A stretch of DNA of 64,000 nt from IMG/VR virus record IMGVR_UViG_3300004481_000388, positions 1-64,000 of that record; one strand, 5' to 3'. A program made the position numbers and the translations under genes. This DNA comes from a virus. Each line of letters starts with the position of its first letter. The stretch's first letter is position 1. Below the pieces are notes generated by a model that saw only the letters and a program-made list of their open reading frames with translations, did no database searches and had not been told where the DNA came from. Below are positions 5,698 to 51,361 of the stretch, in pieces.

Positions 5698-5961
5698 TTA
5701 TATTTGTGGGTTTACCTCACCACAATCTAAACACATCACATTCCTCCCATAGTTCCTCAATGTATTATGAGTACAGCCAGAGCAAGAATGTGTATAGGTA
5801 ACAGTAGGAAGTACGATAGAAGAGTCACTATGTAACTCCTTCATGCCATACCACAAGTTCTCCAACATCTGCGCTGTCCATTCATTAGGATTGAGATTGA
5901 ACTCCTCGGTTAAGTCTGAGATGACAGCACGTATACGGTTAGCTAGTTCTTGTTTAGTCAT
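5698..5961 (-). CDS. hypothetical Cys-rich protein
   Basis: Part of ORF 5698..6021. ATG at 5961 follows GGAGGTGGGG and avoids overlap with the dut stop. CSGC...CLDCG. Confidence 0.55.
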   Translation of the reverse strand: MTKQELANRIRAVISDLTEEFNLNPNEWTAQMLENLWYGMKELHSDSSIVLPTVTYTHSCSGCTHNTLRNYGRNVMCLDCGEVNPQI

Positions 5962-6645: not shown

Positions 6646-9354
6646 CTACGCGAACCTTAACACACGGGGGTCACACTTCACCCTCTCAGCTAACAACTTC
6701 GGTGTCCCCTTAATCTTAATCCCCTCCAAATTCTTAGCCCTACTAAGCGCCACATATACCATCCCAGGACTTGTGAAGAAGTTATGCCCAATGTCCACCT
6801 GTATCTTCTCAAGACTCAAGCCTTGCGTATTATGAGTGACTATTCCGTTAGCTACGAATACGTGCTCATCCTCCACTGATATATCTATCATAGGAATGTC
6901 TATGCCAAGATCAGTTACGCTCTTGACGTTATCCCAGTCACCTCGTCTAAATAAGATACGGTTGGGATTTAGTTGCTCTAGCTTCTCCTTCTTATAAGGG
7001 CGTGAGAAGCCTACATAAGTCTTGAACGCATCCAACCCCTCTGCGTTAACCCTAATCTGGTAGTAGGGGTTAACGTCTCCTTGATACTCACTGCGTCTAG
7101 TTGGTATGCCTAATGACTCTAGTAATATCTGTACTTGAAGTGATAGACGCTTAGAGGATGTAGCGTATAGCACGTACGATCTACCCACGCTTCCATCAGT
7201 ATCAAACAAGCCACGAAGAAATGCACATACCCAGGACTTCTTCATAGTAACAGCAAAGGGTACTTCCTTATCTAGTCCTGTTACGTGCTTCAACCCTAAC
7301 CCTTCCAACCATTCTCTAAATGGTAGAGAGGTGGAATGTAACCCTCTATTGTCACCACGTATAGATACCTTTCTACCTAAGTCTCCGAATATACGTACTA
7401 CTTCTGCCTGTAGAAATGGGTCTATTGTAGCTATATGAAGCTGCCCCTCTTTCTTATCGGAGTAGTTACCATCACCTACTATTACCCCCAACAACCAAGC
7501 TATATCGTCTGTGATATTAGGTACGCTAGGGTGTGAGTTATGGATGAGGTTGTTCATACCAAACTGTCCTATACGAACCTTTACTCCTTGAGGTAGTTCC
7601 TTAGTAGGTATAAACCCTTCTGGCGTAAGTAATGGGTGTTCCCCACTACAGATAAGTTCAAATCCTGAATAGGTAGTTACGCGATATGCACGACGTAGGG
7701 TGTTAGTCTTGTCATACGCATTCTCCATTCCTCCTATTCCTGTCTGTACCTTATCTCCATTAACTAACTCACTAATAGGAATAAGCCCACGAGTGGTTAG
7801 CACAAGGGTTTCAGGGGCTACACACTTATGCACACTACTCGCATACGCCAACCTTAATGGCGTGAACAACACCTGCCCCTTCACATACTTCTTATTCATC
7901 GTATTGAGGTAAGGCTTCTCGTTCTCCCTATACTCCGGTTTCCCTTCCTTCCCCAACCGATCCAACGACTTCTCACTACATCCATACCAACTCTCTACCC
8001 ACTCACTCACAATATCCTCCCTTACTACTTGCCCCACTTTCACCCTAGACCCGTTCCTCGCCAGCTTCACCGTTGCTACCTTCTCCTCATCATCCCACGC
8101 CTCAAGCCAACCACAATCCCCGTTGGCGTATGAGAACCGAGGGGAGTCATTAGCTAGGATCATTACGTAACTTCCTATCTTCAAGTTAAGTTCGTAGGGG
8201 ATATTGTTCTTCCACTCGGTACTCTCCTTCCCCCCTACATACCACCTCTTACTCCCTATCTTCACCTTCTCCCCATCCACATTCATAAGAGCTACGTCGT
8301 TGAAGTTATCTACTAACCTATTCACTGGGAATATGGTAGTGCCATCAAACTTGCTATCTAAGTTATCACTAAACTCTACCCCCGCCTCTATCAAACACCT
8401 TACTCCCTCTTCCCCACGCCCCACGCGTATATGATTCAACGCGTCTAATAATAGCGGGTTACTCTGTCTCCACACCTTTGTTAACTTCACTGTGTTAGGC
8501 TCGAATAATTCCTCCCACGAATCTCCTTCAAACGCAAACTTCCCACTCATCGGGTCTTTATTATCCTTCACAGGAGGGAGTTGGAGGAAGTCACCAGTCA
8601 ACCCCAACACAAAAGGCTTCTTCCCCTCAGCATCACGATATTTGTTCATCTCCTTTACGGCTAGTATGATAGTCTCTAGTGCATCAGCCTCGAACATACT
8701 TACCTCGTCAAGTATGATCCCTCCTATCTTACTCCCAATACGTTCGAGATTACGTAGTAACTTCCCTCGAATATACGCGTCTTTGAGGGATTGTGTGTTG
8801 TAGAATCCAAGGCGTGAGTGAATCGTCGTCGTGCCTATATTCACCGCCGCTATCCCCGTAGAGGCTAGTAGTTCCACATCTGCCCCCCCTTCTATCCACT
8901 TATTTAAGAGGTAGGACTTACCACTCCCAGCCACACCCGTCAAAAAAGGCGTGTTCATATTGTTAAGCCGTGAGATCGCACCGTAAGTAGTAATGTTCCC
9001 CTCATCATCGTACTCTCTCGTATCTTCCCCACTCCCATCACACACGTACGTCGCAGGAGCTACCTCACTAACCCCTACTCGCGGCGTAAACCCTCCACCT
9101 ATATGCTCATACACATCAAAGGGCTTATCTACGTCTGGTGAAAACCCCCCCTTAATAATCTCCTCCAATTCCTCAGTAGTAACAGGATTGGTAGCCACTG
9201 GTGGGTTCTCCTCCAACTCCTTCTCCAACCCACGAATAATCGCCGCATCTTTGGCATCTAGTTCCAACTCCCCTATTGTCTTCTTACTTAACCTAATAGT
9301 CCCACCACCTCCCACGCTATCACTATCGAAACCATAATCATTCATGTCGCTCAT
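6646..9354 (-). CDS. SF1 (Pif1/RecD-like) DNA helicase interrupted by an intein
   Basis: Walker A GVAGSGKSYLL, Walker B IILDEVSMF, GDFLQLPPV. Motif V is split as SSVHK | intein | TQGLSLE. Also YVALSRAK. Confidence 0.85.
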   Translation of the reverse strand: MSDMNDYGFDSDSVGGGGTIRLSKKTIGELELDAKDAAIIRGLEKELEENPPVATNPVTTEELEEIIKGGFSPDVDKPFDVYEHIGGGFTPRVGVSEVAPATYVCDGSGEDTREYDDEGNITTYGAISRLNNMNTPFLTGVAGSGKSYLLNKWIEGGADVELLASTGIAAVNIGTTTIHSRLGFYNTQSLKDAYIRGKLLRNLERIGSKIGGIILDEVSMFEADALETIILAVKEMNKYRDAEGKKPFVLGLTGDFLQLPPVKDNKDPMSGKFAFEGDSWEELFEPNTVKLTKVWRQSNPLLLDALNHIRVGRGEEGVRCLIEAGVEFSDNLDSKFDGTTIFPVNRLVDNFNDVALMNVDGEKVKIGSKRWYVGGKESTEWKNNIPYELNLKIGSYVMILANDSPRFSYANGDCGWLEAWDDEEKVATVKLARNGSRVKVGQVVREDIVSEWVESWYGCSEKSLDRLGKEGKPEYRENEKPYLNTMNKKYVKGQVLFTPLRLAYASSVHKCVAPETLVLTTRGLIPISELVNGDKVQTGIGGMENAYDKTNTLRRAYRVTTYSGFELICSGEHPLLTPEGFIPTKELPQGVKVRIGQFGMNNLIHNSHPSVPNITDDIAWLLGVIVGDGNYSDKKEGQLHIATIDPFLQAEVVRIFGDLGRKVSIRGDNRGLHSTSLPFREWLEGLGLKHVTGLDKEVPFAVTMKKSWVCAFLRGLFDTDGSVGRSYVLYATSSKRLSLQVQILLESLGIPTRRSEYQGDVNPYYQIRVNAEGLDAFKTYVGFSRPYKKEKLEQLNPNRILFRRGDWDNVKSVTDLGIDIPMIDISVEDEHVFVANGIVTHNTQGLSLEKIQVDIGHNFFTSPGMVYVALSRAKNLEGIKIKGTPKLLAERVKCDPRVLRFA
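6829..7824 (-). mobile_element. 332-aa intein with a LAGLIDADG homing-endonuclease domain, inserted in helicase motif V
   Basis: Starts with Cys (CVAPETLVLT) and ends with VTHN followed by Thr. Block B is CSGEHPLLT. LAGLIDADG motifs are LLGVIVGDGNY and FLRGLFDTDGSV. Removing it restores VHK-TQGLS. Confidence 0.85.
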
Positions 9355-13093: not shown

Positions 13094-14158
13094 TCACTTC
13101 TCACCCCCTTTCCCCCTCAACCTCTTCACCTTCTGCCTCATCCCCTCCACCCCGCTCCTCCCATACTTATCCTGATGCTCCAAGTAATCCTTAATACTCT
13201 TCCCCGCGAACTCCCCATGTTGATAGTACCCTTCCTTGTACATGTCGAACCACGTCCTCAACGCCTCTCCGTCTAATCGTGGCTTAGCAAACCAGTTAAC
13301 ATTAGGCGTCTCGGTGGGGTGTGGGGTGAAGTACATACGAAACTCTAACTTCTCCTGCGGCGTACCCTCTCCACTAACGTGCGAGGTAAGGTGAAATATT
13401 TCGCCCACAGCAGCGGGCGTATCCTTAATCAACGCCTTCCCTGCCGTAGCTGGGCCATAGATCGTAGCCCCTTCCTGATCCTCGCCCCTACTCTCTCTCG
13501 CTGTTATCAACCCTCGTGGTACTGGTAGGTTCGATAGGTCAGTAAACGTCTGTCTCGCTATGAACTGTGCTATAGTATAGTTCCCCCTCGTATAATTCGC
13601 AATCGTCTCGCCGTATGTCTTGAACCTCATCCCCCCGTCCTTCGGATCACCTGTTAAGTGCTTCCCTGTCCTCGACACTTCCTGCATGACTAAGTTACAT
13701 AGCGACGTGATACTATCCACCACGTACGCCCCCACCTCTTCCTCATCCTCATGAGAAAAGGGTAGCCATATAATCTCCCCTCCTCGTTCCCTCGGCCACA
13801 ACCCCCTCATCAGCTTACTCGCCATCGCCATCGCACTCTCCCCCTGCCCTACATATACCACGTCTATCAACCCGGCTTCCCGTGCATTCTCAACCGCCAC
13901 CGCTCCCCCTTCATCGCACGATATGTACCTAGTAATCTTCCCATACCTTTCTAGAATATAATCACAAAACTGTAACGCCTCCCACGTCTTCAACGCACCA
14001 CTAGGCCCATATAACATACTCCAATGCGCTTTCGAGTTACGTGGGATGTAGAGTTGCTTCTTCCCTACCCCCTCTCCCTCACTCGTTGTCTCTGTGGTAG
14101 TCTCGCCACCTCCTGTTACTTCCAACTTTAAATCATCGGCTGACAGTTTAATTGCCAA
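13094..14158 (-). CDS. RecA-like / AAA-type NTPase (Sak4-like recombination ATPase candidate)
   Basis: Walker A-like YGPSGALKT, Walker B-like AYVVDSITS. Lies in the replication-recombination module. Confidence 0.45.
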   Translation of the reverse strand: MAIKLSADDLKLEVTGGGETTTETTSEGEGVGKKQLYIPRNSKAHWSMLYGPSGALKTWEALQFCDYILERYGKITRYISCDEGGAVAVENAREAGLIDVVYVGQGESAMAMASKLMRGLWPRERGGEIIWLPFSHEDEEEVGAYVVDSITSLCNLVMQEVSRTGKHLTGDPKDGGMRFKTYGETIANYTRGNYTIAQFIARQTFTDLSNLPVPRGLITARESRGEDQEGATIYGPATAGKALIKDTPAAVGEIFHLTSHVSGEGTPQEKLEFRMYFTPHPTETPNVNWFAKPRLDGEALRTWFDMYKEGYYQHGEFAGKSIKDYLEHQDKYGRSGVEGMRQKVKRLRGKGGEK

Positions 14159-15070: not shown

Positions 15071-15310
15071 CTAATCCCACTCCTCCTCATTAGCTACTTT
15101 TTGTGCCATAAACACCACCACAGCCCTCTCCTCCTTACTCAACCTAGCCCACTGATTCACCACCTGATAAGGTACGTAATTGCGCCAGTCGTGCACCATA
15201 CCAGCATTATCAAATTCAGGGTTGTCTAGGTCTACGTTTGGGGGAGGGTTACGAATAGTATTTAGTTCGTGCTCTATTACCTCTTCAGGCGTCATTTTGA
15301 TTATATTCAT
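15071..15310 (-). CDS. hypothetical protein
   Basis: 79-aa ORF, start overlaps the upstream gene end. Confidence 0.55.
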   Translation of the reverse strand: MNIIKMTPEEVIEHELNTIRNPPPNVDLDNPEFDNAGMVHDWRNYVPYQVVNQWARLSKEERAVVVFMAQKVANEEEWD

Positions 15311-16026
15311 ATCTTACTCCTCCTTCTTGGTTTAGTTAAAGCATCTTCTATTGACCAACCTAAACGTAGGCGATCTCTTATTATACTCACAGTTAAGTTA
15401 ACCTCCTTTGCCCACTCGCTTATATGTTTAGTTTCTCCTTTATACTTTAAATAGGTAGCATTATCTTTATTGAGATGTCCCTTGCCATTATCAAAGTTAA
15501 ATACATCTTCCAACACCCAGCCTGCATCTATACGCCTAGATATGGTATAAGATGGTATACCTGTTTCCTCTGCCCAAGCTGTTATAGATTGAGTCTTATT
15601 CCTATATGTCACTAGCCTCTTACTAGGCCTAACAGGAATAGTTAGTGCCTTAGCTACAGACATTTTCTTCAGTCTGCTATGTATTACAGCAGCACTTACC
15701 CCCAACTCCTCTGCCCAAGCTGCTACACATTGAGTCTTACCCTTGAATTTGAGTATTCTATTTGTAGATGTATTCCTAGCCTGCTCTATCTTAGTAGCCC
15801 ACCTAACATTCTCCTTATAGTACCCTTTGTTGTTATCTACCCTATCAAGTGAGTGCTTAGGAGAAGGAGGATCACCTACGTCTTTGTAAAATGTATTAAA
15901 ATCTAACCACTCCTCACATAGCATGCCTTTATATCTTTGATAGGCTTCGTGGTTAGGATTAAGGCAGCGTCTCTTTAGCCCTTCCCATATATGGTATATC
16001 CTGCTATTACTTAGACCGTGCTTCAT
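15307..16026 (-). CDS. homing-endonuclease-like protein (HNH/AP2-type block plus three HTH repeats)
   Basis: HSLDRVDNNKGYYKENVRWATKIEQARN, then three repeats: KTQCVAAWAEELG, KTQSITAWAEETG, ETKHISEWAKEVN. Confidence 0.65.
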   Translation of the reverse strand: MKHGLSNSRIYHIWEGLKRRCLNPNHEAYQRYKGMLCEEWLDFNTFYKDVGDPPSPKHSLDRVDNNKGYYKENVRWATKIEQARNTSTNRILKFKGKTQCVAAWAEELGVSAAVIHSRLKKMSVAKALTIPVRPSKRLVTYRNKTQSITAWAEETGIPSYTISRRIDAGWVLEDVFNFDNGKGHLNKDNATYLKYKGETKHISEWAKEVNLTVSIIRDRLRLGWSIEDALTKPRRRSKI

Positions 16027-17561
16027 TACTCTCTCCTGATTATCTGTACTAACTCAGCTTCCGCCTCATGATGGGGGATTCGAGGTTTGAATTCAAACTC
16101 AAGCATATTATCACGATAAGTAGAAGAGTTCCAGTCCTGATTAAAAAATACGCATTTGCTTGGGTAACTACAGCTATGCTCATACTGCGGGAATACTCGG
16201 TCTAAATATTTCTCTAGCTCACTTATACTCTTACCTTTGTATTGGTAAGGCTTAAAGGCATCTATTCCTATATTGGTATAGAGGTTATATTTCTGCCTCG
16301 CCCAACTCCTCAACCTCCCCTGATCCCTCCTGAACGGTGGCGCGTTCACAATAAACTCATCCAGCGCACATCCACCATCCTCCCCCACATCACTCTTCAC
16401 CGCGTTAACGAACGCCTCCACTGTCACGCCCTCAAGTTCCCATATATTCGTCCTCTTATACTTCGGCCCTAACTTCCCACTCGAACCATCTGGCTTCGTA
16501 TAGTTATAGTTCATAGCAAACTCCATCCCCCCATTCGCGTCCCTCTTCACATACGGGCGAATGAGGGAACACGACTGCTCCTTCACCCCTGTCTGATTGT
16601 TCTTCCTCCTCTCCCCCTTTATGAGAAAGATCATCTGCACCCCGGCGATTTGCCAGCACGCGTCCTTGCCTAACTTATTATACCTATCCTTAAACCATCC
16701 AGGGATACTATGATACTCACTATCTTCAGGAATAGTATTTTGCCACTCTCTGAAGTAACACGCACATAACTCTGCCCACCACCTCAATCTCTCCTGCACA
16801 CTACACACCTCACTCATCCCCTGCATGTCACTCTCCCCCGCACTGATCTTCCTCCCCTCCCACTCCGCTGCCGTCTTCCACGATAGTACGAACAAGTCAC
16901 CTGTTAGTCGCTGCTCAAGGAGTCCATCAAGTCTCGCCATCCAACCTATCTCATCCCCTCCTTCCCCACTATGCCACCCCACATCCTTTGGTATCTGCGC
17001 CATCTCCCCTAAACTCTCCAACTCCTCCCTCTCCACCTCCCTCACTTCATATTCCTCCAACAACCACGCCAACCCCTTATCACTCACATAATAGGCCCTC
17101 AGTAGCGCCTCCACTAACGCCATCTGCTCCTTCACCGTGTAATCAACCCAATAATCCCCACCTCTCGCCACCTCACTCCCACCATCCACATCAGGGAGAA
17201 AGGAGTAGTCCTGCCCGTCATTCGCGCCTTGATTAGCGCCTGAAGTGTCAACTAAGTTTACATCCTCTTGTTTGGGGGAGAGTCCTATCTCCTCAAGATC
17301 AAACTGGCTCTTCCCCACTTCCTCAACAAAACGTGCAAGTGCCTTCTCCACACATATACCTATAGGCTCGCCCTTGAGCATGTGTTCCAACCCCTCATGC
17401 ACACACGTACCTACTAACAGAGGCCACGATATGTACTCACTACTTACACCTCCCCCCTCGTGTAAGTAGGAGTAGTAGAACTTTCTAGGACATCTCTGTA
17501 ATGTCTCTGTTCTACTCCTGTCAACAAGTATCTGAAAATCTGTTGGCTTATATCTACTCAT
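16026..17561 (-). CDS. PD-(D/E)XK (RecB/Cas4-like) nuclease with a low-complexity insertion carrying the 17-bp repeat
   Basis: N-terminal CPRKFYYSY and VGTCVHEGLEH, core RLDGL...FVLSWKT, C-terminal Cys pair CSYPSKC. Confidence 0.6.
   Translation of the reverse strand: MSRYKPTDFQILVDRSRTETLQRCPRKFYYSYLHEGGGVSSEYISWPLLVGTCVHEGLEHMLKGEPIGICVEKALARFVEEVGKSQFDLEEIGLSPKQEDVNLVDTSGANQGANDGQDYSFLPDVDGGSEVARGGDYWVDYTVKEQMALVEALLRAYYVSDKGLAWLLEEYEVREVEREELESLGEMAQIPKDVGWHSGEGGDEIGWMARLDGLLEQRLTGDLFVLSWKTAAEWEGRKISAGESDMQGMSEVCSVQERLRWWAELCACYFREWQNTIPEDSEYHSIPGWFKDRYNKLGKDACWQIAGVQMIFLIKGERRKNNQTGVKEQSCSLIRPYVKRDANGGMEFAMNYNYTKPDGSSGKLGPKYKRTNIWELEGVTVEAFVNAVKSDVGEDGGCALDEFIVNAPPFRRDQGRLRSWARQKYNLYTNIGIDAFKPYQYKGKSISELEKYLDRVFPQYEHSCSYPSKCVFFNQDWNSSTYRDNMLEFEFKPRIPHHEAEAELVQIIRRE
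17246..17262 (-). repeat. 17-bp phage repeat, type A copy, inside a CDS
   Basis: Minus strand TGTAAACTTAGTTGACA followed by CTTC. Translated as VNLVDT in the nuclease. Confidence 0.9.
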
Positions 17562-23351: not shown

Positions 23352-23555
23352 CTAATACCACCTCATCCCTCTCTCCCCTACCCCCTTCTCCTCTTCCCCA
23401 CACACCATCCCCAACCCCTTCCTCACACCTATATCTTCCCCATAACTCACACCCACGAGGAAAGATAGCACGCACATCACGAGGCACACGATCACTACTA
23501 CCATTTCCCTTGTGAGTCGTAACCTCCACAACCGTTCATATTCCTGTTCTGTCAC
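23352..23555 (-). CDS. small membrane protein
   Basis: 67 aa. TM helix VVVIVCLVMCVLSFLVGV. ATGA overlap with the upstream gene. Confidence 0.55.
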   Translation of the reverse strand: MTEQEYERLWRLRLTREMVVVIVCLVMCVLSFLVGVSYGEDIGVRKGLGMVCGEEEKGVGERGMRWY

Positions 23556-23980
23556 AACTCACCCCCTTCCCTTTCCACCCCCGCATTCTCTCTCCTCACC
23601 CTCACCTCCCTAGCAATTTCCACATCCACCCCCATCCCAAACGCCTTCGCCCTCATATTAAACCTCATCAACCCCTCCTCCGTCGCATTCTCCAAATACA
23701 CAACCTCACCCTCTCCCGTCACGTCCCCTCCCTGATCCCTCATACTATTCCACCACGCCACAAACTCCTGCGCGTGGTACTCACTTCTCATCATACACTT
23801 ACTCGCCAAATGCCCTCTCTTCCCCACCTTTGGCCCCAATAGCCAATGAAGGGCGTGAGTCTTCTTATGCGGAGAGAGGGGGATACTCCCCACCCTTTCA
23901 GGCATTATCTCTTCAACTTCACCTACACCACCACCTACACCACCACTTACACCATTCCTACTATCACTCATATTTCCCAT
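23552..23980 (-). CDS. hypothetical protein
   Basis: 142-aa ORF, the first phage-composition gene after the foreign segment. Confidence 0.55.
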   Translation of the reverse strand: MGNMSDSRNGVSGGVGGGVGEVEEIMPERVGSIPLSPHKKTHALHWLLGPKVGKRGHLASKCMMRSEYHAQEFVAWWNSMRDQGGDVTGEGEVVYLENATEEGLMRFNMRAKAFGMGVDVEIAREVRVRRENAGVEREGGEL

Positions 23981-24074
23981 AAACTTATCCTTTCCCTTGG
24001 GGGCTGGTTATTGGATAGTTAGCGTAAGCACACTGGCCTTTCACAGTTTCCATAAGATTCTCCTAAAGTTACCT

Positions 24075-24118
24075 CTCTGCCCAACCCACATTGCAACGGA
24101 GCCCGCGCCGATGGATGT
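24075..24118. repeat. 44-nt GC-rich element, copy B
   Basis: CTCTGCCCAACCCACATTGCAACGGAGCCCGCGCCGATGGATGT, identical to 24509..24552. Confidence 0.95.
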
Positions 24119-24127
24119 GGTTGATAT

Positions 24128-24153
24128 GTGTTCACGAGGCGCCTCGTGAACAC
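24128..24153. other. perfect 26-bp palindrome adjacent to element copy B
   Basis: GTGTTCACGAGGC|GCCTCGTGAACAC. Confidence 0.9.
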
Positions 24154-24292
24154 GGCGTTATGCTGCGCTACGACCTCAGCGTCGGACAATGTTTGCAGTG
24201 TTGGCAAATCCGAAGCGGAAAGCTCCAGTGCCTAACACTGCGAGTTTCGTACTTGTGAATACCGATTGAGCAAAGAAATAAATAAAGAATTT

Positions 24293-24484
24293 TCATACGT
24301 TTTCCTCGCTTAATAGCGTATCCACTTCGTCCCAAAATTCGCCATCAAGTAGCTGTTCGCCGCCTTGTCCCTCAAACTCGAAATGCGCGTTGCGGATTTC
24401 TGCTAGCAGTTTTAGCGCGCGTTGCCCTTTGTCTTTTGTCAATATTGCGTTTTTTTGTTCTTTTAATTTTTCGTAATTATCCAT
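24293..24484 (-). CDS. 63-aa acidic protein of foreign codon usage
   Basis: Internal ATG of ORF 24293..24679. Product MDNYEKLKEQKNAIL...DGEFWDEVDTLLSEENV. AAA/GAA/CGC codons, unlike the rest of the phage. Confidence 0.45.
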   Translation of the reverse strand: MDNYEKLKEQKNAILTKDKGQRALKLLAEIRNAHFEFEGQGGEQLLDGEFWDEVDTLLSEENV

Positions 24485-24508
24485 ATCGAACTTTTTTGAA
24501 AAGTGCCG

Positions 24509-24552
24509 CTCTGCCCAACCCACATTGCAACGGAGCCCGCGCCGATGGATGT
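24509..24552. repeat. 44-nt GC-rich element, copy A
   Basis: Identical to 24075..24118. Read in different frames by the two overlapping listed ORFs, so conservation is at the nucleotide level. Confidence 0.95.
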
Positions 24553-24684
24553 TGTGGTTTACGAGTGCGCGACGGCGCAACTCGTTGAACTTTGTGTTAA
24601 ACCTCCGCACTTGCAAACATCCGTTCGCCCCTTCGATGAGATGGGGCGAACTTTCTCTATTATTCTCCACCAAATACACCCCCC

Positions 24685-24752
24685 AAAAAACAAAAAAAGA
24701 GCGAGTTACAAATGAGGGGAAAGGACATTAACCCCCAAATATAACTCGCTCT
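24685..24752 (-). terminator. intrinsic terminator (minus strand)
   Basis: AGAGCGAGTTA-33 nt-TAACTCGCTCT followed by TTTTTTTGTTTTTT on the minus strand. Confidence 0.65.
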
Positions 24753-24816
24753 TTCTCTGGCACTACTCCTATTAGTCCGGTAGTCTTGGAGTGTGCAAAC
24801 TCTAAGGCGTGAAATG

Positions 24817-24978: not shown

Positions 24979-25133
24979 AAATTTACCTCTTTCCTTTCTT
25001 GTTACTTAGTTCATTTTCGTACTTTAATATCTACTCAGTTAGCCTTTGTGCCTCTTGGGGAGTTATATTTATTACCCCACCAAACCTACAACCATTGTTA
25101 ATAGTTAAACGCCACGTTTGATCACTATGAATA

Positions 25134-25179
25134 TACTGCTTATTACTTATCATTGCCTAATAATAAGTAATAAGCAGTA
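25134..25179. other. 17-bp perfect AT-rich inverted repeat with a 12-nt loop
   Basis: TACTGCTTATTACTTAT-cattgcctaata-ATAAGTAATAAGCAGTA. Confidence 0.9.
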
Positions 25180-25277
25180 AGATCATGTAAACCTATTACA
25201 TTATTTATGCTTACAATTAAGCCTTCGTTTATAAAAACGAAATGAGGCAATACTTCATTAGTTTATTTCATATTACG

Positions 25278-49624: not shown

Positions 49625-51361
49625 ATGAAGAGATTTATATTAACTATTATCTTACTCCCACTTTTACTCATCCTTCTACTTACTACGTCTTTATGGGCAC
49701 AAGGTAGTTCTTCGTCTCACCCTGTTCGTAAAGTAACGTCATTACCTGCTACGTGTACTGCGGTGGGTAGTAGTAATAGTAGTGATTCTGTACTCTACCA
49801 GGGTAGGCTTTATCTATGCACAAGTACGAATACATGGACAGCCGTATCAACAGGCGCAATGGGGATCACTAGCTTGGGAGGGCAGACAGGCGCGACTCAG
49901 ACCTTTGCAAATGATACAAATGTCACTATCTCAAGTAGCGGCGATACTCATACGTTGGGGTGGGCTGGAACACTAGCAGCGGGCAGGCTGAACAGTAATG
50001 TTGTTCAGGCAATCACCAATGATACTAATATTCAAGGCTCAATTACCGCACAGAATTTGACACTAGCTTGGGCTGGAACACTCGCCAAAGCCCGACAGCA
50101 CACAGCAACCGTATATAACGATGCGGCCAATGTCTGGTCAACTGGGTTGCAGGACTTTAATGCAGCTACCATAAAGGTACCTATTAGTATTGGGTATGCC
50201 CCAACGGTAAGCGGCTTGTTTGGCTATGACTCCACGGCGAATGTGTTCACGGGCGGTGCGAATGGGACGAATCGCATCTTCGTGACTCGTGATGCGACAG
50301 AAGCCTTGGCGAACAAAACCCTGGGAGCGACCACCTTCACAGGGAAGCTCTCTGGCTCAGGAGCAGCCCTGGAATTGGATGATGTGAACGGCGTGCAGGC
50401 GTCAGGCGGGATTCGGATGGGTTCAGCGGCCAATAATCACACAAGTCTTGGTTGGGTAGCGGGGCTTATAGGTGTACGAACAACGGGAAAATATGGTTTC
50501 ACATCCTCAGCTACAGATGCCACTGGTACGCAGGATACCTCTTGGTGTCGCAATGCTGCTGGGGTTCACGAATTTAATAGAGGGGCTTGTGGTTCAAATT
50601 TAGGGTTAAAAGTAACCGCTACAGCAAGCGGAGTAAATAACCTCAACATCGCTAGTGCAGCTACTACTGGACACCCTACAATCACAGCAGAGGGCAGTGA
50701 TACTAATATCAACGTGAATCTAGTTCCTAAAGGCTCAGGCGTTGGGCAGGTTAACGGGTCAACAATAGTCACTTCTGACAACACGATCACGAAAACCAAT
50801 CTAACCCTCGACGCCGAAGGGACGGGTAATGTACTCGCGATCCCCGTGAAATTCGGCGTGGCGGCGGCGGGGTGCAATGGAACCACGGCAGGGAACGTCT
50901 TGAACCTGCCCACGTCCGCCGCGCCAACGGCGGCGTGTATCGGCACCACAGTCACGACAGGCTTTTTGGATTACGCTGATGGTTCCACCACAGCCGCGCA
51001 CGGGATTTTTACTCTGCCTAGTGATTGGACTTCGACAGGCGGGGTAGACATTACGCTCTACTACACAGGATCAACCAGTTCCACGAATAACTTTCGGGCG
51101 CAGGTGTCCACGGGATGCGTGGCGGACGGTGAAGATTTAACCGCCCCAACATTCAACACGGCCAGCGCCTCTAACACGGCTGGCCCAACCACAGCAGCGC
51201 AACGCAAGAGCGTGACGTTTACAGGCGTAGCTGTAACGAACTGCGCAGCCTCAGAAACCATGTACGTGAAAATTGAGCGTGTAGGTGCCGATGCAGGCGA
51301 TGCAAATACAGGGAATTTCCGGCTGTTAGAGATGATTGTCACGATTCGGAGGTCAATGTAA
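49625..51361 (+). CDS. second fibre-like protein with an N-terminal Sec-type signal peptide
   Basis: 578 aa. N-terminus MKRFILTIILLPLLLILLLTTSLWAQGSS. G/T/S/A-rich fibre-like composition. Confidence 0.65.
   Translation: MKRFILTIILLPLLLILLLTTSLWAQGSSSSHPVRKVTSLPATCTAVGSSNSSDSVLYQGRLYLCTSTNTWTAVSTGAMGITSLGGQTGATQTFANDTNVTISSSGDTHTLGWAGTLAAGRLNSNVVQAITNDTNIQGSITAQNLTLAWAGTLAKARQHTATVYNDAANVWSTGLQDFNAATIKVPISIGYAPTVSGLFGYDSTANVFTGGANGTNRIFVTRDATEALANKTLGATTFTGKLSGSGAALELDDVNGVQASGGIRMGSAANNHTSLGWVAGLIGVRTTGKYGFTSSATDATGTQDTSWCRNAAGVHEFNRGACGSNLGLKVTATASGVNNLNIASAATTGHPTITAEGSDTNINVNLVPKGSGVGQVNGSTIVTSDNTITKTNLTLDAEGTGNVLAIPVKFGVAAAGCNGTTAGNVLNLPTSAAPTAACIGTTVTTGFLDYADGSTTAAHGIFTLPSDWTSTGGVDITLYYTGSTSSTNNFRAQVSTGCVADGEDLTAPTFNTASASNTAGPTTAAQRKSVTFTGVAVTNCAASETMYVKIERVGADAGDANTGNFRLLEMIVTIRRSM

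Follow-up and report, generated by a model that had tools for sequence, protein, structure and literature searches.

A CALIN-like pair of integron attC-type sites without an integrase in the early arm of a novel phage, bounding a 434-bp unit most likely exchanged by short-homology recombination

Clusters of integron attC sites that lack an integrase are known as CALINs (Cury et al. 2016, PMC4889954). Integrons or their components have been reported in 21 phages, 17 of which carry CALINs, and one of these, in phage TJE1, is located directly behind a terminator (Qi et al. 2023, PMC9892861). Such cassette sites are a rare though documented finding in phages, and their route of entry has so far only been guessed at. 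Small modules bounded by repeats are also known from T4-type phages as PeSL cassettes (Arbiol et al. 2010, PMC2839356; Comeau et al. 2014, PMC4122927), a PeSL being defined as a strong sigma-70-like early promoter plus a stem-loop terminator, repeated across T4-type hyperplastic regions. The locus described here was found in a 64-kb stretch of viral DNA, hereafter the window, where it follows closely on a terminator within the leftward early arm of a novel phage. We read it as a two-site, CALIN-like cluster of integron attC-type sites without an integrase, with a 434-bp unit that most likely moved by short-homology recombination, and give this reading a probability of about 0.72. What is new is a natural pair of phages with and without the unit, from which the crossover can be placed inside an attC-type repeat.

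An exact 44-nt duplication reported by a first-pass annotation of the window was borne out at 24509..24552 (copy 1) and 24075..24118 (copy 2), where no such repeat is expected by chance, and the repeat extends to 57 nt at 91% identity. The annotation had taken the element for structured RNA of no assignable family; the repeats are not a new RNA family and are instead members of an extensive family of integron attC-type recombination sites, which work at the DNA level. This membership was established with a covariance model, R1, which was built from bacterial and metagenomic sequences only and matched the 64-kb window exactly twice, on the minus strand only. Site B (24513..24602, minus strand; 47.9 bits, E ~1e-10) is a complete attC-type site of 90 nt with the boxes GTTTAAC ... 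GTTGGGC. Site A (24079..24163, minus strand; 29.2 bits with many non-canonical pairs) is a chimeric attC-type site of 85 nt with the boxes GCATAAC...GTTGGGC, its R box being off RYYYAAC at one position. The 5′ arm and tip of site A are of a type found in the sites of a cassette contig, L001 (TAACGCCGTGTTCACG...), with the 5′ arm matching L001 1797-1834 at 90%, while its 3′ arm repeats that of site B exactly and pairs poorly with the site A 5′ arm. The duplicated element is this 3′ arm common to both sites together with part of the tip, copy 1 comprising the site B 3′ arm (minus strand), part of the site B tip and 4 nt of flank. The two sites are 434 bp apart with an interior of 349 bp between them, and no tyrosine recombinase or integrase was found in the 64-kb window by tblastn, phmmer or motif search. 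A CALIN is defined by two or more attC sites separated by less than 4 kb and by the lack of an integron integrase close by; the pair counts as one, provided that the sites would pass the IntegronFinder thresholds.

The two different hairpins that had been described beside the repeat copies are local pairings, of 5′ arm with tip, within each attC-type site. One is a perfect 26-bp palindrome at 24128..24153, confirmed as 13+13, which lies inside site A and in which the L-box part of the 5′ arm pairs with a GTGAAC motif in the tip; this motif is also present in the tip of several other family members, e.g., L007_9452 and L014_510. The second hairpin, near 24562-24586, was present in the folds, and the proposed AACCAC/GTGGGTT outer stem with its inner stem appeared in the minimum-energy folds. 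Neither local hairpin has a T-run on its 3′ side. The canonical attC hairpin is the minimum-energy fold (MFE) in nearly all bacterial members of the family. In the window sites it lies 2.8-3.2 kcal/mol above the MFE (2.8 kcal/mol in site A), with an R-box pairing probability of 0.00 in both, and the bulge geometry is kept in site B with one A.C mismatch and is not kept in site A. Both window sites are thus structurally degraded.

Outside the window, a degenerate 3′ arm pattern, needed because the exact 30-nt core had no match in GTDB genomes, recovered the 3′ arm motif from MAGs of Acidobacteriota/Blastocatellia and from metagenomes of soil and other sources. Alignment of 19 non-window members gave an RNAalifold consensus in which an R box and an internal loop are followed by a bulged L box and a covarying stem. 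Across the family, whose sites are 58-97 nt long (attC sites in general being imperfect palindromes of ~57-141 nt with an unpaired central spacer), the architecture combines RYYYAAC/GTTRRRY boxes and an internal loop with a pair of bulged bases, spaced 6 bp apart, a covarying stem and a tip that varies, and the AAC/GTT triplets are invariant in 39/39 sites. Paired cells amounted to 95.3% vs 30-44% when slid, and compensatory change was seen in 17 of the 23 pairs, counts that derive from an alignment fitted to the model. This covariation among homologs supports the earlier claim that in the bounding repeats structure is conserved more than sequence. Both bulges are on the arm that faces RYYYAAC, with 6 bp between them and a T in the distal position, and to this extent they agree with the bottom-strand criteria of Nivina 2016, in which the first extrahelical base is usually G and the last a conserved T with a 6-bp stem between; the first bulged base in the family consensus (...GCGCGC-T-CCGGTG-C-AAT...) is C.

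Dense arrays of these sites, with one ORF per unit, were seen in Acidobacteriota and in a Planctomycetota-like contig, the arrays counting 12 sites in 7.4 kb (L007), 5 sites (L004) and 6 sites (L011). In nearly all of the bacterial units compared, the longer ORF is on the strand opposite the bottom strand. Because of the bulge geometry and the bacterial arrays, the phage coding (minus) strand would be the attC bottom strand. On contig L012 a bona fide integron integrase (TIGR02249, 417 bits) adjoins cassettes whose sites have the same L/R arm, the sites of this contig themselves matching model R1 weakly. No integrase directly adjoining an array of the exact family was found, and the L007 contig ends on its intI side. 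A bacterial origin of the window sites appears probable from these occurrences.

The cargo between the two sites is a 63-aa ORF, ORF63, confirmed on the minus strand at 24293..24484 with its start at 24484, which encodes an acidic helix-loop-helix protein. It lies on the putative attC bottom strand and is therefore "inverted" relative to ordinary integron cassettes. A 98% identical homologue, P0001, is encoded on L001, and four distant relatives share a conserved core; the AF2 model has a pLDDT of 87.8, and no match was found in Pfam, in PHROGs or with the model in Foldseek. A 42-codon ORF (24168..24296, minus strand) has an ATG that overlaps the ORF63 stop (ATGA) and ends 5 nt before site A. 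It is identical in L001, a family search returned no match, and its standing as a gene is uncertain; that it represents the split-off C-terminus of an ancestral protein was considered and was not significant. Just after site A, a 22-codon ORF (23985..24053, minus strand) has the strong Shine-Dalgarno sequence that had been noted for it, AGGAG-N6-ATG with the ATG at 24053. It is present in L025, a related phage contig, lacks its 5′ part in a second one, L026, and is probably not a conserved gene. The repeat had been said to be read in different frames by the ORFs that cover it, which holds for two minus-strand ORFs and fails for two plus-strand ORFs, which read it in the same frame; the ORF frames indicate no coding role of the repeat either way.

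Upstream, the intrinsic terminator at 24685..24752 (minus strand) is as strong as had been claimed, folding at -38.6 kcal/mol (z = -6.7) with a U-run behind it, and is conserved in alignments of both related contigs. It closes the transcription unit upstream and forms the boundary of the variable region on that side. The local shift in composition is real, with a GC skew of ~-0.04 within the region vs -0.66 in the flanking gene, and the description of the segment as foreign and cassette-like is supported. Inverted copies of 16-18 nt reported at 24181-24198 and 24607-24622 were not significant, an equal or higher score being obtained in 74 of 1000 shuffles. Elsewhere, the phage encodes a Sak4-like annealase and has a weak PD-(D/E)XK/exonuclease-like match. 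Searches of deposited phages (megablast and blastn of the region, tblastn of the window ORF 49625-51361) gave no match or noise, a search of plasmids gave no match, scans of IMG/VR with exact and degenerate patterns and with two flanking proteins as queries found nothing, and exact-product look-ups of three window proteins found none on record. An origin of the element from a tRNA fragment or att site was rejected, with no tRNA found in the window and no resemblance.

Comparison of the window with the two related phage contigs revealed three states of the locus: no site (L026), one site (L025) and two sites plus cargo (window). The more distant relative, L026, gave no model match and so has no attC-type site. 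The block 24018..24689 is absent from it, as defined by alignment and by blastn HSP boundaries at 24690 and 24017, and its place is taken by ~160 nt of unrelated sequence that includes TGAACGATAC four times. L025, which is 94-96% identical to the window phage, has a single site that is identical to site B at 90/90 positions, and site B is the resident site of this phage lineage. The 434-bp unit at 24075..24508, a position that is one of several equivalent placements within the repeat, is carried by the window and missing in L025, bearing out the mobility that the first-pass annotation had suspected, and the two L025 HSPs overlap exactly across the repeat. Removing the unit from the window in silico yielded L025 at 309/317 positions. 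As deletion of these 434 bp regenerates L025, the crossover lay inside the repeat, and both the presence/absence polymorphism and the crossover interval are directly demonstrated by this pair. Seven of the eight differences fall in the loop of a hairpin at 24623..24651, an inverted repeat with a 9-bp stem and an 11-nt loop inside the block missing from L026; in L025 this loop has the opposite orientation to that in the window (29-nt reverse-orientation HSP, 100% identity).

In the one event that could be reconstructed, window vs L025, the exchange took place elsewhere than at the canonical IntI cleavage point of the bottom strand, RYYYAA|C (G|TT of the top-strand R′). Exchange at that point is excluded because the upstream site in the window retains the resident 5′ arm and tip, and the L025 comparison thereby rules out that IntI inserted a circular cassette in the canonical way at the RYYYAA|C of the resident site. 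The 434-bp unit was instead gained or lost by a crossover within the 44-57-nt identical stretch (3′ arm plus flank), most likely by short-homology recombination, by insertion of a circle of Campbell type, by pop-out or by switching of template between attC-derived repeats, and the annealase of the phage itself may have helped. The homology route is supported by the chimeric sites, by the disfavoured canonical hairpin in the window sites and by the presence of the Sak4-like annealase and of the weak exonuclease-like match. Short-homology recombination is our best guess, the enzyme or pathway and the direction of the event (gain vs loss) being what we infer from the pattern. The sites may still be active today.

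The cassette contig L001, from a sample that also yielded a related phage, closes on assembly into a 1.8-kb circle in which each of the four units has its ORF on the attC bottom strand. It contains the ORF63 module at ~99% identity with different flanking site halves, and chimeric sites occur in both L001 and the window, the only two phage-context examples of this site family. It is a decidedly speculative idea that some phages may run an integrase-independent cassette system of attC-derived repeats, with small early genes on the attC bottom strand and modules moving between co-infecting phages by short-homology recombination via multi-cassette mini-circles. L001 could be the vehicle of such a system.

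The alternative that fares best, although doubtful, is that the locus is a passive relic, a fragment of a bacterial array captured once by illegitimate recombination and now decaying, its sites having no role in recombination at present and the difference between L025 and the window being due to a simple replication-slippage deletion between direct repeats. The degraded state of the sites, with a fold penalty of ~3 kcal/mol and no R-box pairing, would fit decay, as would the chimeric site A; 44-nt direct repeats are classic slippage substrates, and folded attC sites are easily deleted by slippage (Loot et al.). However, the occurrence of a nearly identical ORF63 module in the independent context of L001, between other site halves, points to recent mobility, and two phages with ~5% difference elsewhere have exactly the same site B.

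We consider it unlikely that a host integron integrase inserted or excised the unit site-specifically at G|TTGGGC, either by recombination of the top strand or by host IntI treating the phage coding strand as top, which would make site B a phage-borne landing pad for trading cassettes with host integrons. A site-specific crossover at this box is indistinguishable from homologous recombination because the identity spans it, and the order of the product (resident body upstream, incoming body downstream) fits exchange there. On the coding strand, moreover, the unit has the canonical cassette format, TTGGGC followed by the ORFs and then attC. Top-strand recombination is documented in the literature, and IntI1 recombined phage attC sites in five of six tested cases, top strands less often (PMC9892861). 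Yet IntI needs no homology, and here the 37 nt upstream of the box are identical while the 5′ halves are unrelated, which is the pattern predicted by homology-driven exchange. The poor folding of both window sites into the canonical hairpin, the bulge geometry and bacterial arrays that make the coding strand the bottom strand, and the lack of an integrase in the window also argue against this explanation.

The original proposal of structured RNA elements was examined by several routes. The 44-nt core folded no better than shuffled sequence in either copy (z = -0.04 and +1.2), nor did the 121-nt contexts (z from -1.6 to +1.2 over core and contexts), and an Rfam scan of 20-29 kb at E <= 10 returned no relevant match, Rfam containing no attC family. 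The related idea of a mobile promoter was not upheld, no sigma-70-type promoter being found on the transcribed (minus) strand at 24060-24700. That the repeats are RNA elements in 5′ UTRs (riboregulators, processing sites or stabilisers) whose likeness to attC is incidental or co-opted would suit their position on the transcribed strand, 25-30 nt ahead of ORF starts, their preference for a two-hairpin fold over the attC hairpin and the genes on the element's own strand in the window and L001, but it is highly improbable given the fold and Rfam results, the bacterial arrays, which place the family antisense to genes and at gene 3′ ends, and L026, which has the same downstream gene without any such element.

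The exchange within the repeat points to homology-driven shuffling rather than integrase chemistry. The association of an environmental attC family of Acidobacteriota/Planctomycetota type with a novel phage hints at the likely range of hosts and at a path by which cassettes could pass between integrons and phages. For annotation, "mystery" GC-rich hairpin repeats of phage early regions are worth checking against attC models.

Among known systems, the PeSL cassettes of T4-type phages are similar in that short structured repeats flank small ORFans in an early or hyperplastic region, close relatives differ by indels of repeat-bounded modules, and recombination between repeats can yield mini-circles, comparable to the four-unit circle of L001. 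They differ in that the window repeats have no sigma-70-type promoter and, instead of combining a promoter with a terminator, share homology with integron attC sites, and in that the window phage is not T4-type and has two copies only in 64 kb; the comparison suggests a functional likeness in module shuffling, not membership. Insertion of cassettes by IntI at attG (Loot et al., bioRxiv 10.1101/2022.09.11.507474) likewise places an integron cassette outside an integron platform, but the target here is an attC-type site and the junctions are within 44 nt of identity, not in a short GTT-type motif in unrelated DNA. With sedentary chromosomal integron arrays, whose attC types are specific to a taxon or an environment (Ghaly et al. 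2021, PMC8352920), the site family shares its dense MAG arrays of one ORF per unit and its distribution over several phyla, in line with the clustering of attCs by environment, whereas the window has two sites only, no integrase, a phage context and a reversed gene orientation. The closest counterparts are the phage CALINs (PMC9892861), which have the same arrangement of two attC-type sites less than 4 kb apart around a small ORF with no integrase nearby, the same boxes, internal loop, bulged bases and variable tip and, in TJE1, the same position in a phage genome directly downstream of a terminator. The present locus differs from them in having a conserved 63-aa ORF on the putative attC bottom strand, in having two sites that are each chimeric or degraded and favour other folds over the canonical hairpin, in belonging to an attC family of Acidobacteriota/Planctomycetota environmental type, and in coming with a pair of phages, with and without the unit, that places the exchange inside the site body and not at the canonical cleavage point.

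A 44-nt sequence occurs exactly twice in the 64 kb of the window, at 24,075–24,118 and 24,509–24,552 (0 copies expected by chance), as the first-pass annotation had reported, and the similarity continues out to 57 nt at 91%. The surrounding features it described were also present: a perfect 26-bp palindrome (24,128–24,153), a second GC-rich hairpin (~24,562–24,586), an AACCAC/GTGGGTT outer stem, a 63-aa ORF on the minus strand (ORF63, 24,484..24,293), AGGAG-N6-ATG ahead of a 22-codon ORF, and, upstream of the segment, a strong minus-strand terminator (24,685–24,752; fold of −38.6 kcal/mol, z = −6.7, with a U-run directly after it). A shift in composition was likewise borne out, with a GC skew of ~0 in the segment vs −0.66 in the adjoining gene. 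Claimed inverted copies of 16–18 nt were not significant, as 74 of 1000 shuffles reached the same score; the 44-nt core folded as RNA no better than shuffled sequence, and an Rfam check of the region gave no match. That annotation had proposed a cassette of structured RNA elements of no assignable family; mobile, foreign and structured remain apt, whereas RNA and unassignable do not.

ORF63 has one close homologue only, P0001 (98% identical), encoded on the 1.85-kb contig L001, in which four short ORFs are separated by imperfect palindromes of ~58–90 nt with RYYYAAC at the start and GTTRRRY at the end. A degenerate pattern of the conserved arm retrieved members from Acidobacteriota/Blastocatellia MAGs and from many metagenome contigs. 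The family alignment from which covariance model R1 was built holds 19 members, none of them from the window, and its fold comprises a 7-bp box at the terminus, an internal loop, another box in which one base is bulged, a stem that covaries and a variable tip. In the window, R1 hit two minus-strand sites and no others: site B at 24,513–24,602 (47.9 bits, E about 1e-10) and site A at 24,079–24,163 (29.2 bits, E about 2e-5). Elsewhere it detected arrays of 12 sites in 7.4 kb (L007, spaced ~430–1080 bp, each unit having a single small ORF), 6 sites (L011), 5 (L004) and 3 (L013). Over 39 sites, in an alignment fitted to the model, standard pairs filled 95.3% of pair cells vs 30–44% with slid partners, and 17 of the 23 pairs showed compensatory change; AAC/GTT was invariant. 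These repeats have the architecture of integron attC sites and are not a new RNA family. A metagenome contig, L012, encodes an authentic integron integrase (TIGR02249, 417 bits vs a cut-off of 265) adjoining cassettes whose sites have the same TCCGGTGCAAT-N4-GTTAGGC arm and whose ORFs lie on the opposite strand. No integrase was shown adjoining an array of exactly the window-site family; the L007 contig stops on the side where intI would lie, and its other flank carries Planctomycetota-like genes. Taxon- and environment-specific attC types are known, including Acidobacteria and Planctomycetes types (PMC8352920). A small EamA/DMT-like membrane-protein gene (L002 2076–2651; L004 5599–6592) has attC-type sites on both sides in L004; in L002 one site lies downstream of it and no model search gave a second there. 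Site-flanked in L004 and followed by different cassettes in the two contigs, the gene is a cassette common to variable arrays.

On the recombinogenic bottom strand, attC sites have their extrahelical bases on the arm opposite 5′-AAC, the first usually a G, the final one a conserved T, with a 6-bp stem between them (Nivina et al. 2016). The strand on which our model was written, here called X, has RYYYAAC in its 5′ arm, and its 3′ arm reads ...GCGCGC-T-CCGGTG-C-AAT-N4-GTTRGGC, with two bulges 6 bp apart, the distal one a T and the first a C rather than a G. This geometry, the position of the longer ORF opposite X in nearly all bacterial units compared, and the integrase of L012, divergent from the cassette ORFs, together indicate that X is the bottom strand. 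In the window X is the minus, coding strand, and since the ORFs lie on X here and in every L001 unit, the cassettes are "inverted". The elements of the first-pass annotation (REINTERPRETED) can be placed in this structure: the 44-nt repeat, exactly common to sites A and B, consists of the X-strand 3′ arm together with some of the tip and 4 flanking nt, and the two "different hairpins" arise where the 5′ arm of a site pairs locally with that site's tip. Several family members carry a tip GTGAAC motif complementary to the L-box GTTCAC. For ssDNA, the minimum-energy fold is the canonical hairpin in nearly all bacterial members, with R-box pairing probabilities mostly of 0.5–1.0; sites A and B prefer a two-hairpin fold, the canonical one costing ~3 kcal/mol more, with an R-box pairing probability of 0.00. 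Site A is chimeric: it joins a 5′ arm of a type found in two L001 sites to the 3′ arm of site B, and the two arms do not match.

Two related phage contigs were found through homologues of the phage gene just downstream (23,552–23,980): L025, with 94–96% nucleotide identity to the window, and L026, from the same sample as L001, with about 70–97% over aligned blocks (mostly 72–86%). L025 has a single site, 90/90 identical to site B, and L026 has no attC-type site, so that related phages exist in three states, without a site, with one, or with two plus cargo. Blastn of the window against L025 gave two alignments whose overlap is exactly the repeat, and the 120 nt past the L025 site are identical (120/120) to those past site A. 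With 434 bp removed, the window matches L025 at 309 of 317 positions; of the 8 differences, 7 trace to a small inversion polymorphism in a hairpin loop, in which the 11-nt loop of a hairpin with a 9-bp stem is flipped between window 24,623–24,651 and L025 3349–3377 (coding strand ATCTCATCGAA and TTCGATGAGAT, respectively). At about 5800–5959, L026 carries unrelated sequence with a TGAACGATAC ×4 tandem repeat in place of the attC-type block. Its divergent arm encodes, near the primase, a small protein that carries an Acb2/Tad1-hairpin domain (PF24729, 1725–1940) of the anti-CBASS/Thoeris sponge family.

The crossover lies within the 44–57-nt identity, and the 434-bp difference may reflect a gain or a loss. 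From these comparisons we favour homology-driven exchange within the repeat (probability about 0.5–0.6), which could proceed by Campbell-type circle insertion, pop-out or template switch. Such exchange would account for sites that are identical over exactly the repeat stretch and unrelated in their other halves, and for chimeric sites in the window as well as in L001; the block common to the two (~99% identical) begins halfway through the upstream site and ends a few nt short of the AAC box of the next. It would also fit the gene content of the phage, which includes a Sak4-like annealase and a protein weakly matching PD-(D/E)XK/exonuclease-like enzymes. Exchange catalysed by IntI at the G|TTGGGC box would, by the Nivina criteria, be top-strand recombination, and we consider it unlikely. 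Canonical IntI exchange at RYYYAA|C on the bottom strand is excluded, as it would place the incoming site body upstream, where the window retains the resident 5′ arm and tip. L001 (1–1852; Logan SRR28401841) has ~29 nt identical at both ends and thus assembles as a ~1.82-kb circle of four units and as many attC-type sites, every ORF lying on the attC bottom strand; a genuine mini-circle, a tandem array and a graph artefact are all candidate explanations. That phages shuffle attC-derived cassettes independently of integrase, with L001 as a four-unit mini-circle, seems improbable.

The ORF63 family is tiny, with four distant representatives among 1.8 billion proteins and a conserved core (...IRxAHxEFxGxGGExxLxxEFWDxVD...). 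Two contigs looked up, carrying relatives P0005 and P0006, have these genes in compact same-strand clusters of small genes with no attC-type sites around them, which suggests that the gene came from a phage or a mobile element. AF2 gave ORF63 a confident helix-loop-helix model (pLDDT 87.8), for which BFVD and PDB contained no informative match. A candidate 42-codon ORF (MKILYLFLCSIGIHKYE...CQHCKHC...; 24,168–24,296, minus strand) overlaps the ORF63 stop through ATGA, fills the remainder of the unit and stops 5 nt ahead of site A. Distant ORF63 relatives have a C-terminal tail (..LDFFCLIP..) to which the start of this ORF bears a weak likeness, one that was not significant.

The window is a novel phage-like genome, encoding a DNA polymerase, primase, PIF1-type helicase with intein, structural protein, Sak4-like annealase and HNH endonuclease, and it showed no similarity to deposited phages or IMG/VR contigs. 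The intein, with a LAGLIDADG homing-endonuclease domain, splits the PIF1-like helicase gene (6646–9354, minus strand). Three minus-strand genes (13,094–14,158, 15,307–16,026 and 16,026–17,561), encoding the ssDNA-annealing Sak4-like protein, a free-standing HNH endonuclease (phrog_3377, 5.9e-66) and the protein with the weak PD-(D/E)XK/exonuclease-like match, form a candidate phage recombination module. The leftward arm (2000–24,000) shows extreme strand asymmetry (plus-strand GC skew −0.3 to −0.8, the coding strand being very G-rich), which collapses exactly across the inserted block. In the AT-rich spacer from the 170-aa gene to the terminator lies a near-perfect 28-nt inverted repeat (25,127–25,186; 86% complementary, 4-nt gap) with weak, sub-threshold Rfam matches only (mir-9413, potC).

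Qi et al. (2023) described 17 CALINs, attC-site clusters without an integrase, in phage genomes, one directly downstream of a terminator; IntI1 recombined 5 of the 6 phage attC sites tested, and off-target homologous or illegitimate recombination was suggested as the route of entry (PMC9892861). The present locus is one more phage-borne integron-component locus of this documented kind, and adds a natural with/without phage pair that confines the exchange to the interior of the site, genes lying on the bottom strand of attC, and an environmental attC family with no earlier tie to a phage within the searches made. The repeats differ from the promoter-early stem-loop (PeSL) cassettes of T4-type phages, and are not members by definition, since the search for a promoter-like site found none and no T-run follows the hairpins. 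By analogy, homology-driven exchange here would be functionally like the module shuffling and mini-circle formation of T4-type phages (PMC2839356).
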